Below are positions 2,509-11,607 of a stretch of DNA of 64,000 nucleotides, in pieces (the stretch's first letter is position 1; each line of letters starts with the position of its first letter). The DNA lies in the NCBI GenBank assembly GCA_018992685.1, contig JACVGT010000021.1, forward strand, positions 1 to 64,000, given 5' to 3'. A program made the position numbers and the translations under genes. Below the pieces are notes generated by a model. It did not search any database and was not told the DNA's origin. It saw only the letters and a program-made list of their open reading frames with translations. This DNA comes from Theionarchaea archaeon (GTDB taxonomy: Archaea > Methanobacteriota_B > Thermococci > Methanofastidiosales > SZ-28-30).

Positions 2509-3663
2509 CTATTCTTCTACAAATGCTACGAGGAGTGCTGCCACCGTTGATGTCGCCATGGCGAACATAAATGGTGCAGTCATTCCATACGTGTCCCAGA
2601 GCAATCCAGCAATCATGGAGGCAGCAAAAGCACATAGCCCCATGACCATCTGGTAGGCCCCCAGTATAGAAGCTTTTCTGGAAGGTGGAGCCAGCTCTGA
2701 CACCAGGGTTCTTTGTACTGGATCTAGGGCGCCTTTGTGCATGCCGTACAGGAAAAGCAAAGGTATGATGGCATATGCACTTTTCTGGGGATCAGTTCCC
2801 CCACAGACTGCAAATCCAGCACACAAAAGCCCGAATAGCGCAAATGCAATCATGAGTACGGTCTTTCTACTGGTTCTGTCTGCCATTTTTCCAAAGGGAT
2901 AGGAAAAGGCTGAAGCTGTTGCAGTGAAAATAAGATACAACACAGGGATGAATCCAGTAGAGTATCCTGAATCCCTTGCAAAGATCAACATGAAGGAATA
3001 GCTAAATGCACCTACAGCAAATATCGCAGAAAGAATGAAGAACAGCTTCAGGTTTGGCGTAAGATCTTTCAGGGAGAGACTGACATAGGCACTACCAGTT
3101 TTTCTTTCCTTAACTAGGTAGAGAATGAAAAACGCTCCCAGCAGGGATGGGAATGCTGCTACAAAAAACAGGGGCCTGTAGCCGATTTTCTGCACCACAG
3201 CAATGCACACCAGGATGCCACATACAGCTCCTAGATTGTCCAGGGTGCGCAAGAAGCCGAAGGCTGCTCCTCTTGTCTTTCTGGTGGACAAATCTGCCAG
3301 CATGGCGTCTCTGGGTGCTCCTCGTATCTTACCCAGCCGATCCATTATTCTGAAAGGCACCAGGTGATAGATAGAAATTGATGCAGCATACCCAATACGG
3401 GATACTGAAGCGAAAACATAGCCCAGCCAGATGAAGACTTTTCGCTTCTGGAGCCTATCAGAGAGGAATCCGCTGCCTGCCTGTGAAAAAGAGACTAGTG
3501 CCTCCCCCAGTCCATCCAGAAATCCAAGAAAGGTCATACTTCCTCCCAGGACAGAGGTAACAAAGAGGGGCCACACAGGATACACCATGTCTGATCCCAG
3601 GTCATTGAGAAAGGAAGCCAGCGCAAAAGCTTTTAGAGTCCTCCTGCTTCGGTTCTCATTCAT
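2509..3663 (-). CDS. MFS transporter
   Basis: About 12 hydrophobic segments; GFLSDRLQKRK and DRLGKIRGAPRDA motifs. Confidence 0.92.
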   Translation of the reverse strand: MNENRSRRTLKAFALASFLNDLGSDMVYPVWPLFVTSVLGGSMTFLGFLDGLGEALVSFSQAGSGFLSDRLQKRKVFIWLGYVFASVSRIGYAASISIYHLVPFRIMDRLGKIRGAPRDAMLADLSTRKTRGAAFGFLRTLDNLGAVCGILVCIAVVQKIGYRPLFFVAAFPSLLGAFFILYLVKERKTGSAYVSLSLKDLTPNLKLFFILSAIFAVGAFSYSFMLIFARDSGYSTGFIPVLYLIFTATASAFSYPFGKMADRTSRKTVLMIAFALFGLLCAGFAVCGGTDPQKSAYAIIPLLFLYGMHKGALDPVQRTLVSELAPPSRKASILGAYQMVMGLCAFAASMIAGLLWDTYGMTAPFMFAMATSTVAALLVAFVEE

Positions 3664-3704
3664 GGGGGGAGAAAAGAGCCACTGTCTTATAAAGGTTAGG
3701 CTGT

Positions 3705-3960
3705 TCCGCAGGTTTACCCGCTATCGCAGCTCAGTAGATTTGAGAGGTCGCTGAATGAATATGTTACCTCAAATCTCTGCTGGAGGACAGCAGATCAATG
3801 CAAACTTCAACATGAGGGTTCTCGTCCTTCTGTCCCTATCTTGGGCGTCTGTTGCTGGCCCTGAACCTACCTCCCCACCAGTTGTTTTACCGAGTACCAA
3901 CGGAATACTCCAGTAGTCGCAGCTAGCTCGCCTTTTCGGTAAGGCGTTGGTCTGGGTGAT
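3705..3960 (-). ncRNA. Candidate structured non-coding RNA, family not recognised
   Basis: Six consecutive stem-loops in a gene-free gap; G-U pairs favour the minus strand. Confidence 0.4.
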
Positions 3961-4059
3961 TCCTGATTCATGTCACAAGAAAAGTCCTGGCAAGATGCCT
4001 AATCCTAAGAATATGCGATGATGAGATAATCTTATAAAGTTCGTCTGATAACCAATTTC

Positions 4060-4365
4060 ATGATCAGGAGAATTCCGGCCGCCATTAGACGTATCGAAGA
4101 CATTTCCGACGAGCCCAGAGTCAGTGTGGTGGGGACCGTTATCAAGCGTGGGGAAGCGGAATTCATCCTAGATGACGGCACTGGCCAGCTGACTGTAATC
4201 ACATCGGAAGACCCAGCAGTGAAGGAAAGGGAAATCGTGAGAGTCATTGGGAAAGTATACGGCACAACACTCGAGGCTGAAATTGTTCACCCCCTCAAAA
4301 ACATTAACATGCAGCTCTATCTCAAAATGTACGAACTGAGAAAGAAGGTATACGGTAGTCAGTAA
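4060..4365 (+). CDS. Small OB-fold protein, RPA14/RPA3-like subunit
   Basis: RRIPA...RVSVVGTV...ILDDGTG...VRVIGK...AEIV, matching Thermococcales RPA14. Confidence 0.8.
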   Translation: MIRRIPAAIRRIEDISDEPRVSVVGTVIKRGEAEFILDDGTGQLTVITSEDPAVKEREIVRVIGKVYGTTLEAEIVHPLKNINMQLYLKMYELRKKVYGSQ

Positions 4366-4424
4366 CCATGATCCAATATCCAAACCGTGAAATCCCAGAT
4401 ATCAGCAGGAAGAGCCAACATGTT

Positions 4425-4757
4425 TCACATCTGCAGTAAGGAGTCTACTTCTTGCCGAATGATCAACGGCGAAGTGTGTTCATCCATCATGATCCCGATG
4501 AAGTAGTCCTGATGCTTGATGATCATCATGCGATAGTCTGAACCTTCTATGATTACCTGTTTAACGTCTCCAAGATCCAGTGAATTGGCAATCTCTTCTG
4601 CAGTGGCTCCTGCAAAGACTGATATTGCTCCTTCACTTTCGGGATCTTTCAACGTGGACGCCAAAACCACGCCGTCTCTGGCTACCACAACGGCCCCATT
4701 TACTCCCTCAATTCGGGACATGTCGTTGACAAGCCGTTTCAAAACTATATCCGCCAT
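4425..4757 (-). CDS. Roadblock/LC7 domain protein
   Basis: GVNGAVVVARDGVVLAS and LGDVKQVIIEG pattern. Confidence 0.9.
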   Translation of the reverse strand: MADIVLKRLVNDMSRIEGVNGAVVVARDGVVLASTLKDPESEGAISVFAGATAEEIANSLDLGDVKQVIIEGSDYRMMIIKHQDYFIGIMMDEHTSPLIIRQEVDSLLQM

Positions 4758-4761
4758 TTCA

Positions 4762-4962
4762 TCACCACAGTTTGAGATTCCTAAATTCCTTTATATCCTC
4801 AGCAAGCTTATATAGCTCTTCATCTGTAATTTCCATCTTCCGCTTGAGGTCGGTGAGATCTTTTGTCAGTTGCTTGATCCTAATATACAAGATGGCGATT
4901 ATCAAAAGGGCAATCAACGTTTCCATGATCAGTACGATCAAGAGAGTTTCCGCGCTTATCAT
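4762..4962 (-). CDS. Small single-TM coiled-coil protein in the minD operon
   Basis: N-terminal hydrophobic helix plus heptad tail; 1-bp gap after minD, 4-bp gap before roadblock. Confidence 0.75.
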   Translation of the reverse strand: MISAETLLIVLIMETLIALLIIAILYIRIKQLTKDLTDLKRKMEITDEELYKLAEDIKEFRNLKLW

Positions 4963-4963
4963 A

Positions 4964-5749
4964 TTACTCACCAAATATTGATCTCACAAAGCGAGAGACA
5001 ACACCTTCCTCTCTCTCTGTTTCTGGTTCTGCAAATTCCTCTCCAATCATTTTCGTTGCCAACCGTCGATATGCAATGGCAGCAGGAGAATCTTCGCTGC
5101 GTATGACAATAGGAGTCTTGAAAGCAGAAGACCGCCTTACCTCTGGATCTTCTGGAATGATTTCCAGAATCTTAACACCCAAGATCTTTTCCACTTCTCG
5201 CATAGACAGATCAGTCTTCTCGAAGTTGGCACGATTCAGTATTGCACCCGAAACACGAGAACCCACCATCTCTGTCATGATCTTGGTTTTTAGAGCATCT
5301 GCCATAGATGATATTTCAGGGTTGACCACTAGAACAACCTCATCCGCAACAGCCAAGGGTATCACGCCGTCCCTGGACAGGCCAGCGGGTGCATCGATAA
5401 GCAGAAATTCAGTTCCCTTGAGCAGCTCAATCATAGCATCTTGAAGCTTCTCCGGATTGGACTTCTGAAATCCTGACAGTGAAACGCCGCAGGGGACTAC
5501 AATAACTCCACCGGGTCCTTTGTACATAGCATCCTTGATGTCTGCCTCGCCAGCCAGCACTTCGTGAAGCGTGACCCTGCTCTTTTCCATGCCGAGGATG
5601 AGAGCAAGGTTGGCCATGGCAATGTCAGCATCGAGGATGATGGTCTTCTTTCCCAGCAAAGCTAAAGCTGTACCTAGATTTGCAGTGGCAGTAGTCTTTC
5701 CTGTTCCCCCTTTTCCAGATGCAATGGTAATTACTCGAGGATTGTACAT
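4964..5749 (-). CDS. minD: Archaeal MinD/ParA-family ATPase
   Basis: Deviant Walker A SGKGGTGKTT, DADIAMANL, IDAPAG, C-terminal amphipathic helix. Confidence 0.92.
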   Translation of the reverse strand: MYNPRVITIASGKGGTGKTTATANLGTALALLGKKTIILDADIAMANLALILGMEKSRVTLHEVLAGEADIKDAMYKGPGGVIVVPCGVSLSGFQKSNPEKLQDAMIELLKGTEFLLIDAPAGLSRDGVIPLAVADEVVLVVNPEISSMADALKTKIMTEMVGSRVSGAILNRANFEKTDLSMREVEKILGVKILEIIPEDPEVRRSSAFKTPIVIRSEDSPAAIAYRRLATKMIGEEFAEPETEREEGVVSRFVRSIFGE

Positions 5750-6487: not shown

Positions 6488-7103
6488 ATGAAGAAAGTTG
6501 TGATAACGGCACGAAAAAAAGACATCCATAATATGGAGGAATTGCTGAAAAATTCCACTTCTAGGACCTATCTACGCATTTTCTGTCTGTGTGGCCTTAG
6601 GAAGAGTCAAAGATGTTCTGAAGACTGTTGGGAACCTCACTGGTCTTCTCTTCATGGTAATTGTTGTTTCCTGTATTGCCACTATCCTGTTATCACACGT
6701 AACAGACCTCTCCTTAACAGCTGAAATCAGAGCCCGAATGGATTCAAACTTCATATATATTCTCATGGCCATCCTCCTGGGATTTGCCACCATGTGTGCC
6801 CTCTCCAAGGATATCTCTGAGAGTATTGCTGGGGTAGCCATTGCGGCGGCGTTGCTGCCACCTGCTGTGGTGTCAGGCATAAGCCTGGTGCTCTATCCTG
6901 AAGAATTCATAACGCCTCTCGTCCTCACCCTAGAGAATGTCCTGGGGCTCATGGCGGGAAGTCTGGCCGCCACTTCCATACTCCACATCAGGCCCAGGAG
7001 AATCCACAGAAAAGCGGTAGCTAGACGTCTTATTTTCAGAACAGCATCTGTATTGGCTGTTCTTCTTTCCTTACTGATCTTGGTCTCAATCTTTCTGGAC
7101 TGA
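6488..7103 (+). pseudogene. TIGR00341/DUF389 membrane protein with internal deletion and frameshift
   Basis: N-terminus MKKVVITARKKDIHNMEELLK in one frame jumps at ~6552 to IPLLGPIYAFS...GVAIAAALLPP in another frame. Confidence 0.7.
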
Positions 7104-7241
7104 TGGAATCCTTGAAAGCTGGTGACCATCAGGAAGACGAAGATCATGAGGATTCGGCAGCCACTACCAAGAAGAGTATTTTCATGGGGGACGCATATCG
7201 AAATCAAAAAGTATTTAAGAATTAGAAATATCTCTTCTTGT

Positions 7242-8189
7242 ATGGAAGAAGTCACTTTAAAAATTCAAAAAAGGGCGGTTAAAAGCCGTGGTAGGGCCAG
7301 GTTGAACAAATCAATGCTTTCAAGACTAGGCACAGAAGAAGAATCTAAACTGGAGATTATTAACAGTGCAGCTGATAGATCTGTGACGGTCACGTTGTTT
7401 GCTGATTCCATGGTTGAAGAGGGCTTTATTAGGCTGAGTGAAGAGGATCTGGAAGCTCTGGGACTCGATGAAGGAGATACTGTTGTTATCAGGAGAAAGG
7501 CACCCATTTCTGAACAGGTTAGAGATCGTGCCGAAGAAGCTGCAGAAAAGATCTCTGAAGGAATAGACAAGATTGGAGAGCGGGCCACAGAAACTGCAAG
7601 AAAAGTTGGTGAAGAGATTGATGAAGTGGAAGAATCAGTACGCGAAGGAATTGGTAAGGCACGGGTCAGCACCTCTCAAGCAGCAGATGTGGTAAAAGAA
7701 ACTGTTTCGAAGGCATACGGAAGGGTGGTTGTGGAGACAGCACCGGTGACGGGGCGGATTGAAACTGCAACCAAGGAAGCAGTGAGCAAGATCAAAGAAG
7801 GAGTCTCTCCCACAGCAGAAATGGCTGAAGCAAAAGCAAAAGAGGTCTATCAGAGAATCGTGGATGACCTGCCCTCTCTCAAAGATCGGTTGTCCAAAGC
7901 AGCAGAACCGGTGGTCAATCGGTTGAGGCCCGACCAAGGTACAAAGCTGCTGGAGGCCCTGAGGGGCGCTGAAGGTGTTATCCAGACAGCCACCATAAAG
8001 TCCGATGCTGTGGCTGATAAATTGATTAGAGAGCTTGAGCTTCCCGCAGATGTGGTGATTTCTGCAGTGCAGCGCAATCAGGAGATTGTCATTCCCAAAG
8101 GAGAAACGCGGCTTGTGAAGGGTGACATTGTTTACCTCGTTGGGAAAGAGGAACCAATCGCACAGAGCATCAGGATGATGGAGGGGTAG
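7242..8189 (+). CDS. CDC48_N-like double-psi beta-barrel + amphipathic helical repeats + TrkA-C (RCK_C) protein
   Basis: GRARL...LG / GFIRL...LGLDEGDTV duplication; Ala/Glu/Lys-rich middle; IRELELP..VVISAVQR....VIPKGETRLVKGD; TATA at 7212. Confidence 0.8.
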   Translation: MEEVTLKIQKRAVKSRGRARLNKSMLSRLGTEEESKLEIINSAADRSVTVTLFADSMVEEGFIRLSEEDLEALGLDEGDTVVIRRKAPISEQVRDRAEEAAEKISEGIDKIGERATETARKVGEEIDEVEESVREGIGKARVSTSQAADVVKETVSKAYGRVVVETAPVTGRIETATKEAVSKIKEGVSPTAEMAEAKAKEVYQRIVDDLPSLKDRLSKAAEPVVNRLRPDQGTKLLEALRGAEGVIQTATIKSDAVADKLIRELELPADVVISAVQRNQEIVIPKGETRLVKGDIVYLVGKEEPIAQSIRMMEG

Positions 8190-8190
8190 C

Positions 8191-8571
8191 ATGGATCTGG
8201 TGCTCACCTCTGATGAGCTCATCACTGTTGGCGTCATTCTCGTAGCCCTCATCTTCGTGTATTTAATAATACGGGAATTCCGGCTCATGAAAACTGATGC
8301 TCGAAAAATGGAAATAGAGCTTGACAGAGAGAAGTTGAAGCTTTTGCAGCAGGATGTGCTCTCCAAGGGTTACCCCTTCACCAGAATGACCTCAGAACAG
8401 TTGAACTACCTCAAGGAAATTGATGAGCAGAATTTTGTGCTGGAAACAGATATCTACGCTAGAGAGAAATCAGCAGAATCCCGATTGAAACGACTCGAAA
8501 ACTATGTTAAACTGGAGAAACTGGATCGATTGCTGGAAAGAATAAAGAAGGAAGAGAAGAAAATAAGGTGA
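8191..8571 (+). CDS. Single-TM coiled-coil hypothetical protein
   Basis: N-terminal TM helix, charged heptads, 1-bp gap to upstream gene. Confidence 0.8.
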   Translation: MDLVLTSDELITVGVILVALIFVYLIIREFRLMKTDARKMEIELDREKLKLLQQDVLSKGYPFTRMTSEQLNYLKEIDEQNFVLETDIYAREKSAESRLKRLENYVKLEKLDRLLERIKKEEKKIR

Positions 8572-8575
8572 ATCC

Positions 8576-8884
8576 ATGTATCCAACAACCACGAGAACGA
8601 GATTAGGAGATTCTCCTCATGTGAGGAGAATATACGGCCTCCCCTCATCACTTGGAGACAGAATACCCACTCTTGAGAGGACGCTTGATGCGTACTTTGA
8701 CATTCACTTTGAAGACATCATACATGAGTGGCAACTGTTGACAGACAATGACCTGCGTGATCTGGAATCGAGGCTTGACCACGTAACCAGGGAGATCACT
8801 GCGTTATACACACAGAAATCTGATCTGGAAAAGAGAGCTGATGCCTTGAGAAAGGAGCTCGAGAACCTGGAGGGATCACCATGA
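8576..8884 (+). CDS. Coiled-coil paralog 1 (LDxYxD...I.EW.L motif)
   Basis: LDAYFDIHFEDIIHEWQLLT then coiled coil. Confidence 0.8.
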   Translation: MYPTTTRTRLGDSPHVRRIYGLPSSLGDRIPTLERTLDAYFDIHFEDIIHEWQLLTDNDLRDLESRLDHVTREITALYTQKSDLEKRADALRKELENLEGSP

Positions 8885-9105
8885 AAGTAATTGACGACTA
8901 TCTTGATGAATATCTGGATCGCAACATGGAATTCCTCATTGAAGAATGGGATCTGGCATCTACAAGGAATATTTCAAGCCTTTCTCGCCGAATACGAGAG
9001 CTTGAGGGCGGTGTGGATCCTGTGAAAGATTTTTGTGACCAGGCGTCCCGGAGACTCGGTGAGCTTGAAGCACGACTCAAAAAATTAAAGGAGGGTTCAC
9101 CATGA
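8881..9105 (+). CDS. Coiled-coil paralog 2
   Basis: LDEYLDRNMEFLIEEWDLAS; ATGA overlap with upstream gene. Confidence 0.8.
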   Translation: MKVIDDYLDEYLDRNMEFLIEEWDLASTRNISSLSRRIRELEGGVDPVKDFCDQASRRLGELEARLKKLKEGSP

Positions 9106-9464
9106 CAGTTGCTGAAGCCCTGCTCTTCCTCATTATACTGGGTATCATCCTCCTGGCGGCTTACTACTTTCTCAAGGGTTCGTCAGGAAGAGTGGAAATC
9201 ACCCGCCCCATTGAAAGTCGCATCGATGAGTACCTTGATCAGAGATTCGACTCCCTCATTTCTGAATGGAGGCTGGTCAGCCGGTCCAGAGTCAGGCGGT
9301 TTGAGAATGAGAAAGCCCCTCAACTTCACGAAGATGAATCACGCATGGCTGAGCTCAGGGCCTTTGAATCGCAGATGAAGGCCACCTTGGATAACCTGGA
9401 GGAACGACTTGATGTCCTTGAAAAGGAAATGGCCAAAGCGGGAAAGGGAAAATCCAAGAAATGA
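9102..9464 (+). CDS. Membrane-anchored coiled-coil paralog 3
   Basis: N-terminal TM, IDEYLDQRFDSLISEWRLVS; ATGA overlap. Confidence 0.8.
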   Translation: MTVAEALLFLIILGIILLAAYYFLKGSSGRVEITRPIESRIDEYLDQRFDSLISEWRLVSRSRVRRFENEKAPQLHEDESRMAELRAFESQMKATLDNLEERLDVLEKEMAKAGKGKSKK

Positions 9465-9711
9465 ACCTGATCTGTTTGCCCAGCTAAGAAGTGAGATCCA
9501 GGCAGTCAGGGAGCAGGGCGAACCTGCACAGAAAAATCCCTCAACCTTTTCCCAGTATCTCTGTGATCTGTGCAGTACATCTCACCCCATATCGGCCCTC
9601 AAGCAGTGTGCAGTGTGTGGCAGGTGGGCATGTCCAGATTGCTGGACTGATACATACTACGTATGTGATTCCTGTGGTGGGATAATTGCTATGAAGAGCA
9701 TAAAGCTTTAA
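9412..9711 (+). CDS. Cys-rich zinc-finger protein
   Basis: CDLC, CAVC, CPDC, CDSC (four CxxC pairs); start uncertain. Confidence 0.75.
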   Translation: MSLKRKWPKRERENPRNEPDLFAQLRSEIQAVREQGEPAQKNPSTFSQYLCDLCSTSHPISALKQCAVCGRWACPDCWTDTYYVCDSCGGIIAMKSIKL

Positions 9712-9734
9712 ATAGTCTGAAGGAAGCGGTATTC

Positions 9735-10211
9735 ATGGAAGAATCTTTTGAACTGGCCGATCGATGGGAACGAATTGCAAAACGGTATGAAGAAGATAAC
9801 TTCCTACTGGAAAAACAGCTGGTAGAAACGAAGATTGAACGCGACCAGTGGAAAAGACAGTATGAAAGTGAGAAAAAGAAGAGCTGGGGCTGGGCTCTGG
9901 CTCTGCTTTCTGTGCTGCTCATTCTTTCTGCGGCCGGGCTTGCCTACTTTGCCACTGAATACGATCGGTTATCCAAGGAAAATCGCAGCCTGCAGTCTCA
10001 ATTGGACGCGGAACAACAGGCTCGCATATCGCTGGAGACGGAGTTGTATGCCGAGATTGATCAGCTGGAAGCTGAAATTGCTGCACTGGAATCAGAGAAT
10101 GCAGTCTATGAGTCCCAGGTTGCGCAGCTGCAACGAGAAGTCGATGATAAGAAGAAGCTCGTCGAAGAACTGCAGAAAATCATTAAAAATCTGCGAGAGG
10201 AGGAGTCTTAG
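9735..10211 (+). CDS. TM-anchored long coiled-coil protein
   Basis: Central hydrophobic helix flanked by heptad repeats. Confidence 0.75.
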   Translation: MEESFELADRWERIAKRYEEDNFLLEKQLVETKIERDQWKRQYESEKKKSWGWALALLSVLLILSAAGLAYFATEYDRLSKENRSLQSQLDAEQQARISLETELYAEIDQLEAEIAALESENAVYESQVAQLQREVDDKKKLVEELQKIIKNLREEES

Positions 10212-11607
10212 TTAGGAACTGATGCCTCTTCCTCAGAATCTGGTAAGCAAAGGCAAGATCTTCTGGTTTGTCAAAATTAAGTACGAATACTTTCTGGAAC
10301 TTGTCTCTGATTATTCTCGCCAACTCACCCCCGACACTGGCTATTATTACGGGTTTCCCATACTCTACCATGAGGCGGGCTGAGTCCTTCACCAGTTCCT
10401 CTCGCAGCGACGCTGGTTCAAAAGAGGGAATACTCAGAACACAATCCACATTGTCTTCTGCAAGAAGAGTTTCCATGACTCTGCAGTATGTTTCTGAGGA
10501 AGCGTCACCCACAATGTCCAAGGGGTTGGTGACAGTCACGTTGGGAGGCAGGATCTTCTCCAGATCAGATACAACACTGGGTGACAATACACTGAGAGTT
10601 GACTCAGGTACGTGGTGCTGCCGCAGTGATTCAGCCAGGAGCACCTTGAACCCACCTGCATTGGTGATGCCCACACAAAAGAAGTGATCCCTGTTGAGGA
10701 AACGATCAGAAACCATGGAGTGGGTCATTATGGCAGCGCAAAACTCTCCATAGTTATGAGCCCTATTCACATGAACCTGCTTCAGGGCACCATCCAAGAT
10801 AGCATCATTGGTCGCCACACTGCCCGTGTGAGACAGAGCTGCCTTGGAAGCCAGCTCGCTGCCAGGCTTGAGAATGACCACAGGTTTTTTTTCATTAAGG
10901 CTCCGGGCAGCTTTCATGAATCGCCTGCCATTCCTGATCCCCTCAATGTAAACCCCCACAACATCACATTCCGTGTCCTTCTGGAAGTATTCCATGAAAT
11001 CAGTGGCCACCAGGTCAATACCATTTCCGTAATTGACCAGTTTATTCAATCCCAACCCCTGTTCTTCCAGCCACGCGGTAAGCAGTCCTGAGACGGACCC
11101 CGACTCACTGATGATGTTAATGTTGCCCTTGGGAGGAATGGGCATGCCCTCCAGGGTGAAAGGACTGTAATCCGGAAGGAAGGTACTATTGACAAAGGGA
11201 ATATTCAATACACCAATACAATTTGGCCCCACAATTCTCATCCCACTCTCTCGTGCTGTCTTCGCAATCTTCTGCTCAAGGATCTTACCTTCTTTGAAGC
11301 GAGCCGCTTCACCAAATCGTGAGGTAACGATAATGAGAAACTTGACCTTTGTTTCTCCACACTCTCTGGTGATCTGCAGTGTGTTGTCAGGACCCACGAC
11401 AGAAATCGCCACGTCGATTTCATCCGGAATGTCGCGGACAGAACGGTATACTTTGCGGCCCATCACCTCATCGTATTCCGGGTGAATCGGGTACAATTCA
11501 GCCTTCAGATGAATATTATTCTGCATGACATGATATCCCAGACTTCCTTCCTTGTGAGAAGCCCCAATCACAGCCACCGTCCTCGGATAGAAAAGATCAT
11601 CCAACAT
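10183..11607 (-). CDS. Acyl-CoA synthetase (ADP-forming) alpha subunit
   Basis: VAVIGAS, GPNCIG, SHTGS phospho-His, NAGG, NPLDIVGDA. Confidence 0.92.
   Translation of the reverse strand: MLDDLFYPRTVAVIGASHKEGSLGYHVMQNNIHLKAELYPIHPEYDEVMGRKVYRSVRDIPDEIDVAISVVGPDNTLQITRECGETKVKFLIIVTSRFGEAARFKEGKILEQKIAKTARESGMRIVGPNCIGVLNIPFVNSTFLPDYSPFTLEGMPIPPKGNINIISESGSVSGLLTAWLEEQGLGLNKLVNYGNGIDLVATDFMEYFQKDTECDVVGVYIEGIRNGRRFMKAARSLNEKKPVVILKPGSELASKAALSHTGSVATNDAILDGALKQVHVNRAHNYGEFCAAIMTHSMVSDRFLNRDHFFCVGITNAGGFKVLLAESLRQHHVPESTLSVLSPSVVSDLEKILPPNVTVTNPLDIVGDASSETYCRVMETLLAEDNVDCVLSIPSFEPASLREELVKDSARLMVEYGKPVIIASVGGELARIIRDKFQKVFVLNFDKPEDLAFAYQILRKRHQFLTKTPPLADF

Follow-up and report, generated by a model that had tools for sequence, protein, structure and literature searches.

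A conserved archaeal gene cluster predicted to encode a membrane-anchored coiled-coil complex with barrel and zinc-finger subunits

Seven closely spaced genes, referred to here as g1 to g7, lie within a 64,000-nucleotide (nt) stretch of DNA from a Theionarchaea archaeon (assembly GCA_018992685.1, contig JACVGT010000021.1, positions 1 to 64,000), and encode short coiled-coil proteins together with a barrel-containing protein and a zinc-finger protein. The whole stretch is called the window, and coordinates are positions within it unless a separate locus is named. All seven open reading frames (ORFs) are on the + strand and occupy 7242-10211 with almost no spacers (Table 1), which bears out the tight packing described in an earlier note on this DNA; its account of the genes around the central coiled-coil trio is likewise correct, in that g2 and g7 are coiled-coil proteins with transmembrane (TM) helices, g6 is a 4xCxxC protein and g1 contains TrkA_C. 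The gaps are 1 nt between g1 and g2 and 4 nt between g2 and g3, the g3/g4 and g4/g5 junctions are ATGA stop/start overlaps, and g6 begins within g5, overlapping its last 53 nt in the +1 frame. The ORF of g1 is open from 7122, and because all orthologs in the alignment begin at a MEEV-type start we set the start of the gene at 7242. The TATTTAAG element, read from the sequence, then stands about 26 nt upstream of the g1 ATG, and under the spacing rule that holds generally for archaeal promoters the operon mRNA would be leaderless or near-leaderless. The closest database proteins are 85-91% identical and come from metagenome-assembled genomes (MAGs) named Theionarchaea.

Table 1. Genes and other features of the locus and its surroundings (aa, amino acids)
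Feature	Positions	Strand	Description
g1	7242-8189	+	315 aa; predicted Cdc48/VAT-N-type barrel, amphipathic helix, TrkA_C
g2	8191-8571	+	126 aa; N-terminal TM helix, then coiled coil predicted to be cytoplasmic
g3 (paralog A)	8576-8884	+	102 aa; soluble
g4 (paralog B)	8881-9105	+	74 aa; minimal domain only
g5 (paralog C)	9102-9464	+	120 aa; N-terminal TM anchor plus domain
g6	9412-9711	+	99 aa; basic N-terminal tail plus predicted binuclear zinc finger, Prok-RING_2
g7	9735-10211	+	158 aa; coiled coil, TM helix, coiled coil
TATA-box-like element	7205-7222	+	A-rich stretch plus TATTTAAG at 7212-7219; read from sequence
DUF389 / TIGR00341-family membrane gene	6488-7103	+	looks truncated or frameshifted
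MinD/ParA-type P-loop ATPase	4964-5749	-	CbiA, 2.9e-22
TM coiled-coil ORF	4762-4974	-	70 aa; no family match
Roadblock/LC7 protein	4425-4757	-	1.2e-9
ADP-forming acyl-CoA synthetase-like gene	10183-11607	-	CoA_binding_2 and Succ_CoA_lig

The centre of the cluster is formed by g3, g4 and g5, designated A, B and C. A D.Y.D...I.EW.L motif had been noticed in these three consecutive ORFs and is present in all of them, with D38, Y40, D42, I49, E51, W52 and L54 (g3 numbering) invariant in a three-way alignment. The paralogy proposed on that basis is significant both by pairwise BLASTP (E = 3e-6, 2e-5 and 7e-5) and by profile-profile comparison, for which hhalign was run with ortholog profiles of 43, 44 and 46 sequences for A, B and C (A/B 98.8%, E 1.1e-16; A/C 97.9%, E 3.1e-13; B/C 98.5%, E 3.3e-15). 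In paralog A an N-terminal extension with a conserved P-T turn precedes the motif helix and the coiled coil. An N-terminal hydrophobic helix can be read in g5 alone among the three, which fits the claim that only the third paralog carries a TM anchor.

Since every locus has a separate ortholog of each of A, B and C, and each best-matches its own, the duplication is judged to be ancient. This age bears on the two junctions, which read GAGGGATCACCATGA (8870-8884, g3/g4) and GAGGGTTCACCATGA (9091-9105, g4/g5) and which the earlier note had taken, along with the EGSP ends of the upstream proteins, as traces of duplication. The likeness itself is there, and the g3 and g4 proteins do both end in EGSP. 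Because the triplication is old and the EGSP ending is restricted to the closest relatives, the look-alike junctions are best read as a GGAGG-type ribosome-binding site combined with a stop/start overlap and not as a product of recent duplication.

The domain shared by A, B and C reaches the cut-off of no Pfam or NCBIfam family, and a profile search of the PDB with the A/B/C alignment returned 213 matches at E up to 1, all of which are designed or natural coiled coils. A profile built from 52 sequences gave 619 matches at E <=1e-3 among 1.84 billion representatives, including 82 at <=1e-10; the genuine matches are short proteins with a single matching stretch, and long proteins with multiple stretches represent coiled-coil noise. 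Two further subfamilies with the motif were seen among proteins P0075-P0156: a soluble one carries RIEKYLDEHFDEYIEEYGLVTE, and a TM-anchored one carries LYFDENFRNIIDEWDL and includes a 250-aa multi-TM protein (P0136) and a 216-aa protein with an extra C-terminal region (P0098). Cluster look-up for ten distant family members gave no names. As leads only, the ESM Atlas returned unnamed archaeal clusters for a distant family member (0.88-0.89) and one unnamed bacterial cluster for g5 (0.82).

To model the three proteins together, we combined A residues 28-102, C residues 30-120 and B, each with its ortholog alignment and with B as the scored partner. The interaction score (ipSAE) was 0.80 in three runs versus 0.15 for the best control, the partner had a predicted local distance difference test (pLDDT) value of 88, and at least 95% of the contacts were common to the runs. 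The 0.80 mark is reached by 116 of 157 solved complexes and by 2 of 215 mismatched pairs, counts that are rough for a model with its own alignments and three chains. Contacts run the full length with a 3-4 spacing, those of A spanning residues 36-98, and homologous positions face each other (A67/B38, A84/B55, C78/B41 and C92/B55). As modelled, A, B and C would form a parallel, in-register, pseudo-threefold heterotrimer; the model supports binding and does not show it. The earlier note had proposed a hetero-oligomer and named a multimer prediction as a check on it: the A+C+B complex is predicted, and the proposal fits the presence of one trio per genome, the conserved start/stop overlaps and a heterotrimer model that scores above its controls.

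The distribution of the cluster was mapped with several of its genes. A search with the zinc-finger alignment, at one genome per species, identified 24 loci, 21 of them archaeal; the other three, from Comamonas, encode ComF-like double-zinc-ribbon phosphoribosyltransferases, which matched by chance through their Cys content and were set aside. The archaeal loci belong to MAGs labelled Theionarchaea or Thermococci and to Methanoregula, Methanolinea and Methanospirillum, the last with two complete genomes. Genes g1-g6 are complete and in the same order in 16/21 archaeal loci; contig ends cut the other five, whose remaining genes keep the order. The A/B/C profile is found in 29 of the 401 genomes of the Methanospirillum phylum, in 30 loci that all have g1-g6 in order, and positive genomes contain exactly three A/B/C members, adjacent to one another, in each set examined (4/4, 29/29 and 3/3). 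A 4-nt overlap occurs at 36 of 43 g3/g4 junctions and 26 of 44 g4/g5 junctions, and g5 and g6 overlap by 32-95 nt in 45 of 46 loci, the longest values perhaps reflecting over-long ORF calls. The genes are co-inherited in a fixed order, with a single copy of each paralog and with coupled reading frames, and the mapping of operon conservation proposed in the earlier note yields a g1-g6 order kept in two lineages. Homologs of g7 are confined to the Theionarchaea-type loci (L001-L003, L013 and L014), the Methanomicrobiales loci all lacking one; this gene is judged to be a lineage-specific addition, and its family matches are coiled-coil noise only. In one Methanoregula MAG (locus L015, 3446-5160) an opposite-strand DDE transposase gene (3659-4816) splits g2 and leaves the other five genes intact.

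The spread of the cluster is patchy, with the finger family in 3 of 133 genomes of the window's phylum, A/B/C in only 3 of 41 relatives of the window's genome (all of its own genus), and the 29 of 401 genomes noted above in the other phylum. Together with the transposase in L015 and the Eco57I-type and N6/N4 DNA methylases that adjoin four Methanoregula-type loci, this pattern could indicate a mobile defence or conflict system, acquired horizontally and residing in variable genome islands. The methylase neighbours, however, come from related genomes and are not independent observations, and the module contains no nuclease, NTPase, protease or other effector domain. Matches in PADLOC-DB 2.0 are low-scoring coiled-coil noise (the ZorA tail, LmuB and PbeC; best E 2.5e-6, 24.6 bits, along a helical stretch), and 12 pattern matches in viral contigs include no relative. 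Flanking genes vary between loci and lineages, but those of the Methanospirillum and Theionarchaea-type loci are housekeeping genes, and the two-gene core described below occupies a stable frh / map / dnaJ-dnaK neighbourhood in Methanobacteriales-type loci. We therefore consider a defence role highly unlikely. In a tree of g2 rooted on the Methanobacteriales-type clade, the Theionarchaea pair falls in an unresolved polytomy with the Methanospirillum, Methanoregula and Methanolinea groups, so that no donor lineage can be named.

The g2 protein is conserved in all complete loci and belongs to a family of 688 members that is widespread in archaea and, where named, is called hypothetical or membrane protein. 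It was considered as a fourth paralog of A/B/C and rejected (hhalign 7.7%). All orthologs of g2 and g5 keep the N-terminal hydrophobic helix, which agrees with the membrane association claimed earlier, and in g2 and C acidic residues precede each hydrophobic helix and Arg or Lys residues follow it; both proteins would thus be placed in the membrane with their coiled coils in the cytoplasm. A C-like protein is also found in Methanothermobacter, Methanobacterium and Methanobrevibacter, with 136 unannotated relatives, and hhalign of C with the single Methanobacteriales protein gave 98.1% (E 7.4e-14), the 107 aligned columns taking in the TM helix. Among 30 Methanobacteriales-type metagenome loci, 24 have a g2 homolog (E 1e-9 to 1e-14) directly upstream of the C-like gene, a pairing with which consecutive NCBI locus tags agree; barrel and finger genes are absent from these loci. 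In a Methanothermobacter-type locus (L067, 3597-9656) Pfam matches place the pair between frh hydrogenase/methionine aminopeptidase genes and a convergent dnaJ-dnaK-grpE cluster, and other Methanobacteriales-type loci have a matching ORF layout (layout only). These comparisons suggest that g2 and one C-type protein are the old unit, that the six-gene form is an elaboration of it and that g5 is the member of ancestral type.

Bitopic coiled-coil membrane proteins made in fixed proportion would also be expected of a cytoskeletal, division or envelope-positioning scaffold resembling the small bitopic coiled-coil proteins of the divisome, in which the barrel and the finger would act as adaptors. 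The weak matches of g7 to FtsL, DivIC and HemX-type anchors point the same way, as does a MinD/ParA-type ATPase with a Roadblock/LC7 protein 1.5-2.8 kb upstream in the window. None of the g7 family matches, however, reaches its cut-off, and any coiled coil would give similar ones; in contrast to FtsL/FtsB, g2 and g5 are predicted to have their coils in the cytoplasm, and the MinD neighbour is not conserved in other loci. As no tubulin, actin or ESCRT gene is linked to the cluster either, we regard such a scaffold as unlikely.

The first gene of the cluster encodes a protein of three parts. In an AlphaFold2 model, residues 1-88 of g1 adopt a double-psi beta-barrel (DPBB) of the Cdc48/p97/VAT N-domain type (pLDDT ~90), residues 88-235 form a long, charged amphipathic helix of low confidence that joins the two confident domains, and a C-terminal RCK_C domain covers approximately residues 251-308 (pLDDT above 90). 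Foldseek of the N-domain returned 264 PDB matches at E up to 1e-3, headed by p97 N domains (E 1.3e-7) and stand-alone DPBBs of archaeal VCP-like ATPases (one of them 7dg9, with a target-normalised TM-score, TMt, of 0.85 and 26% identity). The top matches have E values of 1.3e-7 to 2e-7, root-mean-square deviations of 1.1-1.5 Å over 82-90 columns and TMt up to 0.89. In sequence, Pfam CDC48_N scores 22.1 bits, below its cut-off of 35.1. No AAA family was found in g1 in Pfam and NCBIfam scans, and what remains after the barrel is the helix and TrkA_C (PF02080; 45.9 bits vs a cut-off of 27, E 5.3e-12). Of 17 aligned g1 orthologs, 7 have the RCK_C domain; those of Methanoregula and Methanolinea stop after the helix. 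Since the domain is missing from the other 10, we treat it as an accessory, and the gating of the assembly by an RCK_C subunit that the earlier note had suggested is not supported.

The helix of g1 has a hydrophobic periodicity of 3.67 residues (power 205, vs 91 at 3.6 and 40 at 3.5), that is, an 11/3 periodicity, and its composition is apolipoprotein-like. These properties would suit a relative of PhaF/PhaI, PhaE or UbiK that coats or organises lipid or polyhydroxyalkanoate granules as phasins do, and the Pfam family most often matched by the A/B/C members is indeed Phasin, PF05597, which comprises PhaF/PhaI-type granule proteins (16 of 52 members at E up to 0.1, best E 3.2e-4, always through its C-terminal helix). 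Methanobacteriales relatives match it at 5e-4 to 3e-3 and score 18-20.5 bits, and g3 scores 15.1 bits. No member, however, reaches the cut-off (best 20.5 bits vs 28.8), PF04380 (UbiK/BMFP) and PF09712 (PhaE) are not among the 25 families most matched by the 52 members, and g3, g4 and g5 have no PF04380 match at E up to 1. A search of genome G000 (91% complete) gave no match to TIGR01836 or PF09712, and PhaC_N (PF07167) was found in none of five module-bearing genomes but was matched in the Caulobacter positive control. The TM helices of two subunits also favour a place in the cell membrane over one on a granule. A granule role is exceedingly improbable on this evidence, and the lipid-granule association and the likeness to UbiK/BMFP and PhaE/phasin proteins proposed earlier are not sustained: polyhydroxyalkanoate synthase families were not found in the genomes searched, and no family match of A/B/C rises above cut-off.

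The g6 protein is a clear member of Prok-RING_2 (PF14445; 95.7 bits vs a cut-off of 22.4, E 1.8e-27, model positions 2-55 of 56), and its orthologs in genomes G001 and G002 are also above that cut-off. Its four CxxC pairs consist of C51, C54, C66, C69, C74, C77, C85 and C88, all invariant in 37 sequences, and the eight residues are the probable zinc ligands of a predicted binuclear cross-brace finger. Foldseek of the g6 model (pLDDT 84) gave no match at E up to 1e-3. In a structural alignment with VIA-align, the top 12 rows are FYVE or FYVE-related Rab-effector fingers with middling Z scores of 4.6-6.2, and no classical RING E3 is among the best 50 rows, which provides a lead towards a FYVE-like fold. 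The spacing C-x2-C-G-x3-C-x2-C of g6 is the same as in FYVE domains; FYVE_2, the only Pfam FYVE model to match, scores 16.3 bits (E 0.012) vs a cut-off of 27.2. The DNA for the conserved LE.RLD.LEKE end of g5 also encodes, in its +1 frame, the N-terminus of g6 (M-x-L-W/K-K-x-x-W type), and these two conserved peptides share the same 32-53 nt in nearly all loci.

Prokaryotic RING-finger families, including Prok-RING_2, were reportedly defined by Burroughs, Iyer and Aravind in 2011 (Mol Biosyst 7:2261), who are said to have linked some of them to E1/E2/JAB/Ubl genes. The family membership of g6, and the fact that the g1 barrel has the fold by which Cdc48/p97 binds adaptors and ubiquitin-related domains, would be consistent with ubiquitin-like conjugation, in which g6 would be a RING E3 on a membrane stalk that transfers a SAMP-type modifier onto barrel-captured substrates and feeds them to a Cdc48/VAT-proteasome pathway. 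The surroundings of the module do not match this expectation, as the 35 flanking ORFs scanned in 8 loci include no E1, E2, JAB or Ubl family. None of five module-bearing genomes matched UQ_con, Prok-E2_A or Prok-E2_B, a search of unproven sensitivity in that control genomes also gave no match. The FYVE-type folds of the 12 nearest structural neighbours and the lack of a classical RING E3 among the best 50 rows may also weigh against this reading, short of excluding it, and overall we see little chance that the module is a conjugation system.

Our favoured explanation is that the locus builds a membrane-anchored, stoichiometric complex that serves as a docking platform, and we consider this about evenly balanced between right and wrong, with more of the weight on the structure and much less on a surveillance or scaffold function. 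The g1-g7 locus would encode the subunits of a single complex on the cytoplasmic face of the cell membrane. Its ancient core would consist of two single-pass membrane proteins, g2 and a C-type protein with the D.Y.D...EW motif, whose coiled coils face the cytoplasm, and Methanobacteriales have only this pair. In the six-gene form the C-type gene has been triplicated, and its products A, B and C are modelled as a stalk in which three short motif helices lead into a three-stranded coiled coil and which the TM helix of C would hold to the membrane. Two peripheral parts would have been added: the compact FYVE/RING-like finger g6, whose translation would be coupled to that of C by the conserved overlap, and g1, which would present a Cdc48-N-type barrel on a long amphipathic helix with, in some lineages, an RCK_C ligand-binding domain. 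The barrel and the finger would dock on the stalk and bind, as their ligand, a protein or a lipid headgroup at the surface of the membrane, RCK_C adding ligand control in those lineages that have it. The role of such a complex might be membrane-protein surveillance, or membrane-stress sensing and scaffolding, and would not be that of an enzyme pathway. Of the interpretation given in the earlier note, the hetero-oligomeric membrane assembly is retained and the lipid granule, UbiK and RCK_C gating are not.

Several points weigh against the docking-platform explanation. The whole case is computational. The TM helices and their topology were read by eye with the positive-inside rule, and coiled coils are easily mis-paired in models, the A+C+B heterotrimer being the one complex modelled. 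Gene order is the sole ground for attaching g1, g2 and g6 to the stalk, and the docking or surveillance role is extrapolated from what such domain types do elsewhere; no known ligand motif was found in the g1 barrel or the g6 finger. Evidence for expression is a weak hint, provided by short metatranscriptome contigs on parts of g1 (7251-7424, 7473-7615 and 7649-7805) and g5 (9210-9355), which come from two runs of one study, have 0-1 differences and may represent DNA carry-over. Long stretches of the operon have no cover from either DNA or RNA contigs, which is no evidence of absence.

A more far-reaching version of the docking platform, which we find quite unlikely, would make it a membrane-tethering, client-capture machine assembled from eukaryote-type parts, with a triplicated stalk, a FYVE-like membrane reader and a Cdc48-N-type client holder, and thus an ATPase-independent archaeal counterpart of quality-control and tethering hubs. 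Its stalk would have arisen by triplication of a membrane-anchored subunit, by analogy with SNARE-like and other paralogous bundles. If this were true, the two-gene core would be a universal and unnoticed membrane component of the Methanobacteriales, including gut Methanobrevibacter.

No Pfam or NCBIfam family and no solved structure corresponds to the A/B/C domain, yet the two-gene core spans the Methanobacteriales, and two distant archaeal lineages retain the six-gene form intact. The trio may offer a case in which gene triplication turned a homo-oligomer into an obligate heterotrimer, and the module would bring a FYVE/RING-like finger and a Cdc48-N-like barrel to the membrane of an archaeon. 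Methanothermobacter is now genetically tractable, and with such tools the core pair could be tested directly; for a structure of the trimer, three small soluble fragments would suffice. The literature searches made found no description of the module, although the 2011 paper that defined the finger family may already show its neighbourhood.

The genes surrounding the module in the window comprise several further features. The upstream DUF389 / TIGR00341-family gene is either a pseudogene or an assembly error: its ORF at 6591-7103 spans only TIGR00341 model positions 160-324 of 325, and a short ORF in another frame (6488-6724) overlaps the start of that ORF. Further upstream, the ATPase, TM coiled-coil and Roadblock/LC7 genes form a minus-strand cluster with overlapping ends (4425-5749), which may be a small positioning or GTPase-regulator module. 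Downstream, the convergent acyl-CoA synthetase-like gene overlaps the end of g7 by 29 nt, and this neighbour is also kept in the related locus L014.

Comparison with known systems indicates that none of them fits the module, and that the phasin, Cdc48 N-domain, FYVE and prokaryotic RING labels each cover one part of it. The 'EW.L.T..DL..LE.RL' helix of A/B/C weakly and recurrently matches the C-terminal part of the phasin model PF05597, but A/B/C always remain below the cut-off and, unlike phasins, are TM-anchored or part of a TM-anchored trio. PspB/PspC and FtsL/FtsB/DivIC are short single-pass proteins whose coiled coils are hetero-oligomeric at the membrane, and the proposed complex resembles them by analogy only: there is no sequence relation (matches are below cut-off), the partners are different and the coils are predicted to be cytoplasmic. 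Residues 1-88 of g1 share a fold with the N-domain of Cdc48/p97/VAT (5epp, 7dg9) at 13-26% identity, and unlike these proteins g1 has neither AAA+ ATPase domains nor the second N-subdomain, its barrel continuing into the long amphipathic helix and, in some orthologs, RCK_C. Among solved structures, the g6 model comes closest to the FYVE fingers of endofin (3t7l), Hrs (1dvp) and EEA1 (1joc) and the Rab-effector fingers of melanophilin (2zet), RIM (2cjs) and rabphilin (1zbd), the listed fingers having Z scores of 6.2-3.9 over 46-64 residues. FYVE is otherwise a eukaryotic family, in which phosphatidylinositol 3-phosphate is bound through the basic signature R(R/K)HHCR; g6 lacks this signature, has L-K/R-Q before its third Cys and has a much shorter last loop. 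As a member of Prok-RING_2, far above whose cut-off it scores, g6 has eight invariant Cys residues predicted to bind zinc; unlike what that label would suggest, it is flanked by no ubiquitin-type partners in the loci examined, and it invariably comes sixth in the gene order of a membrane coiled-coil module.

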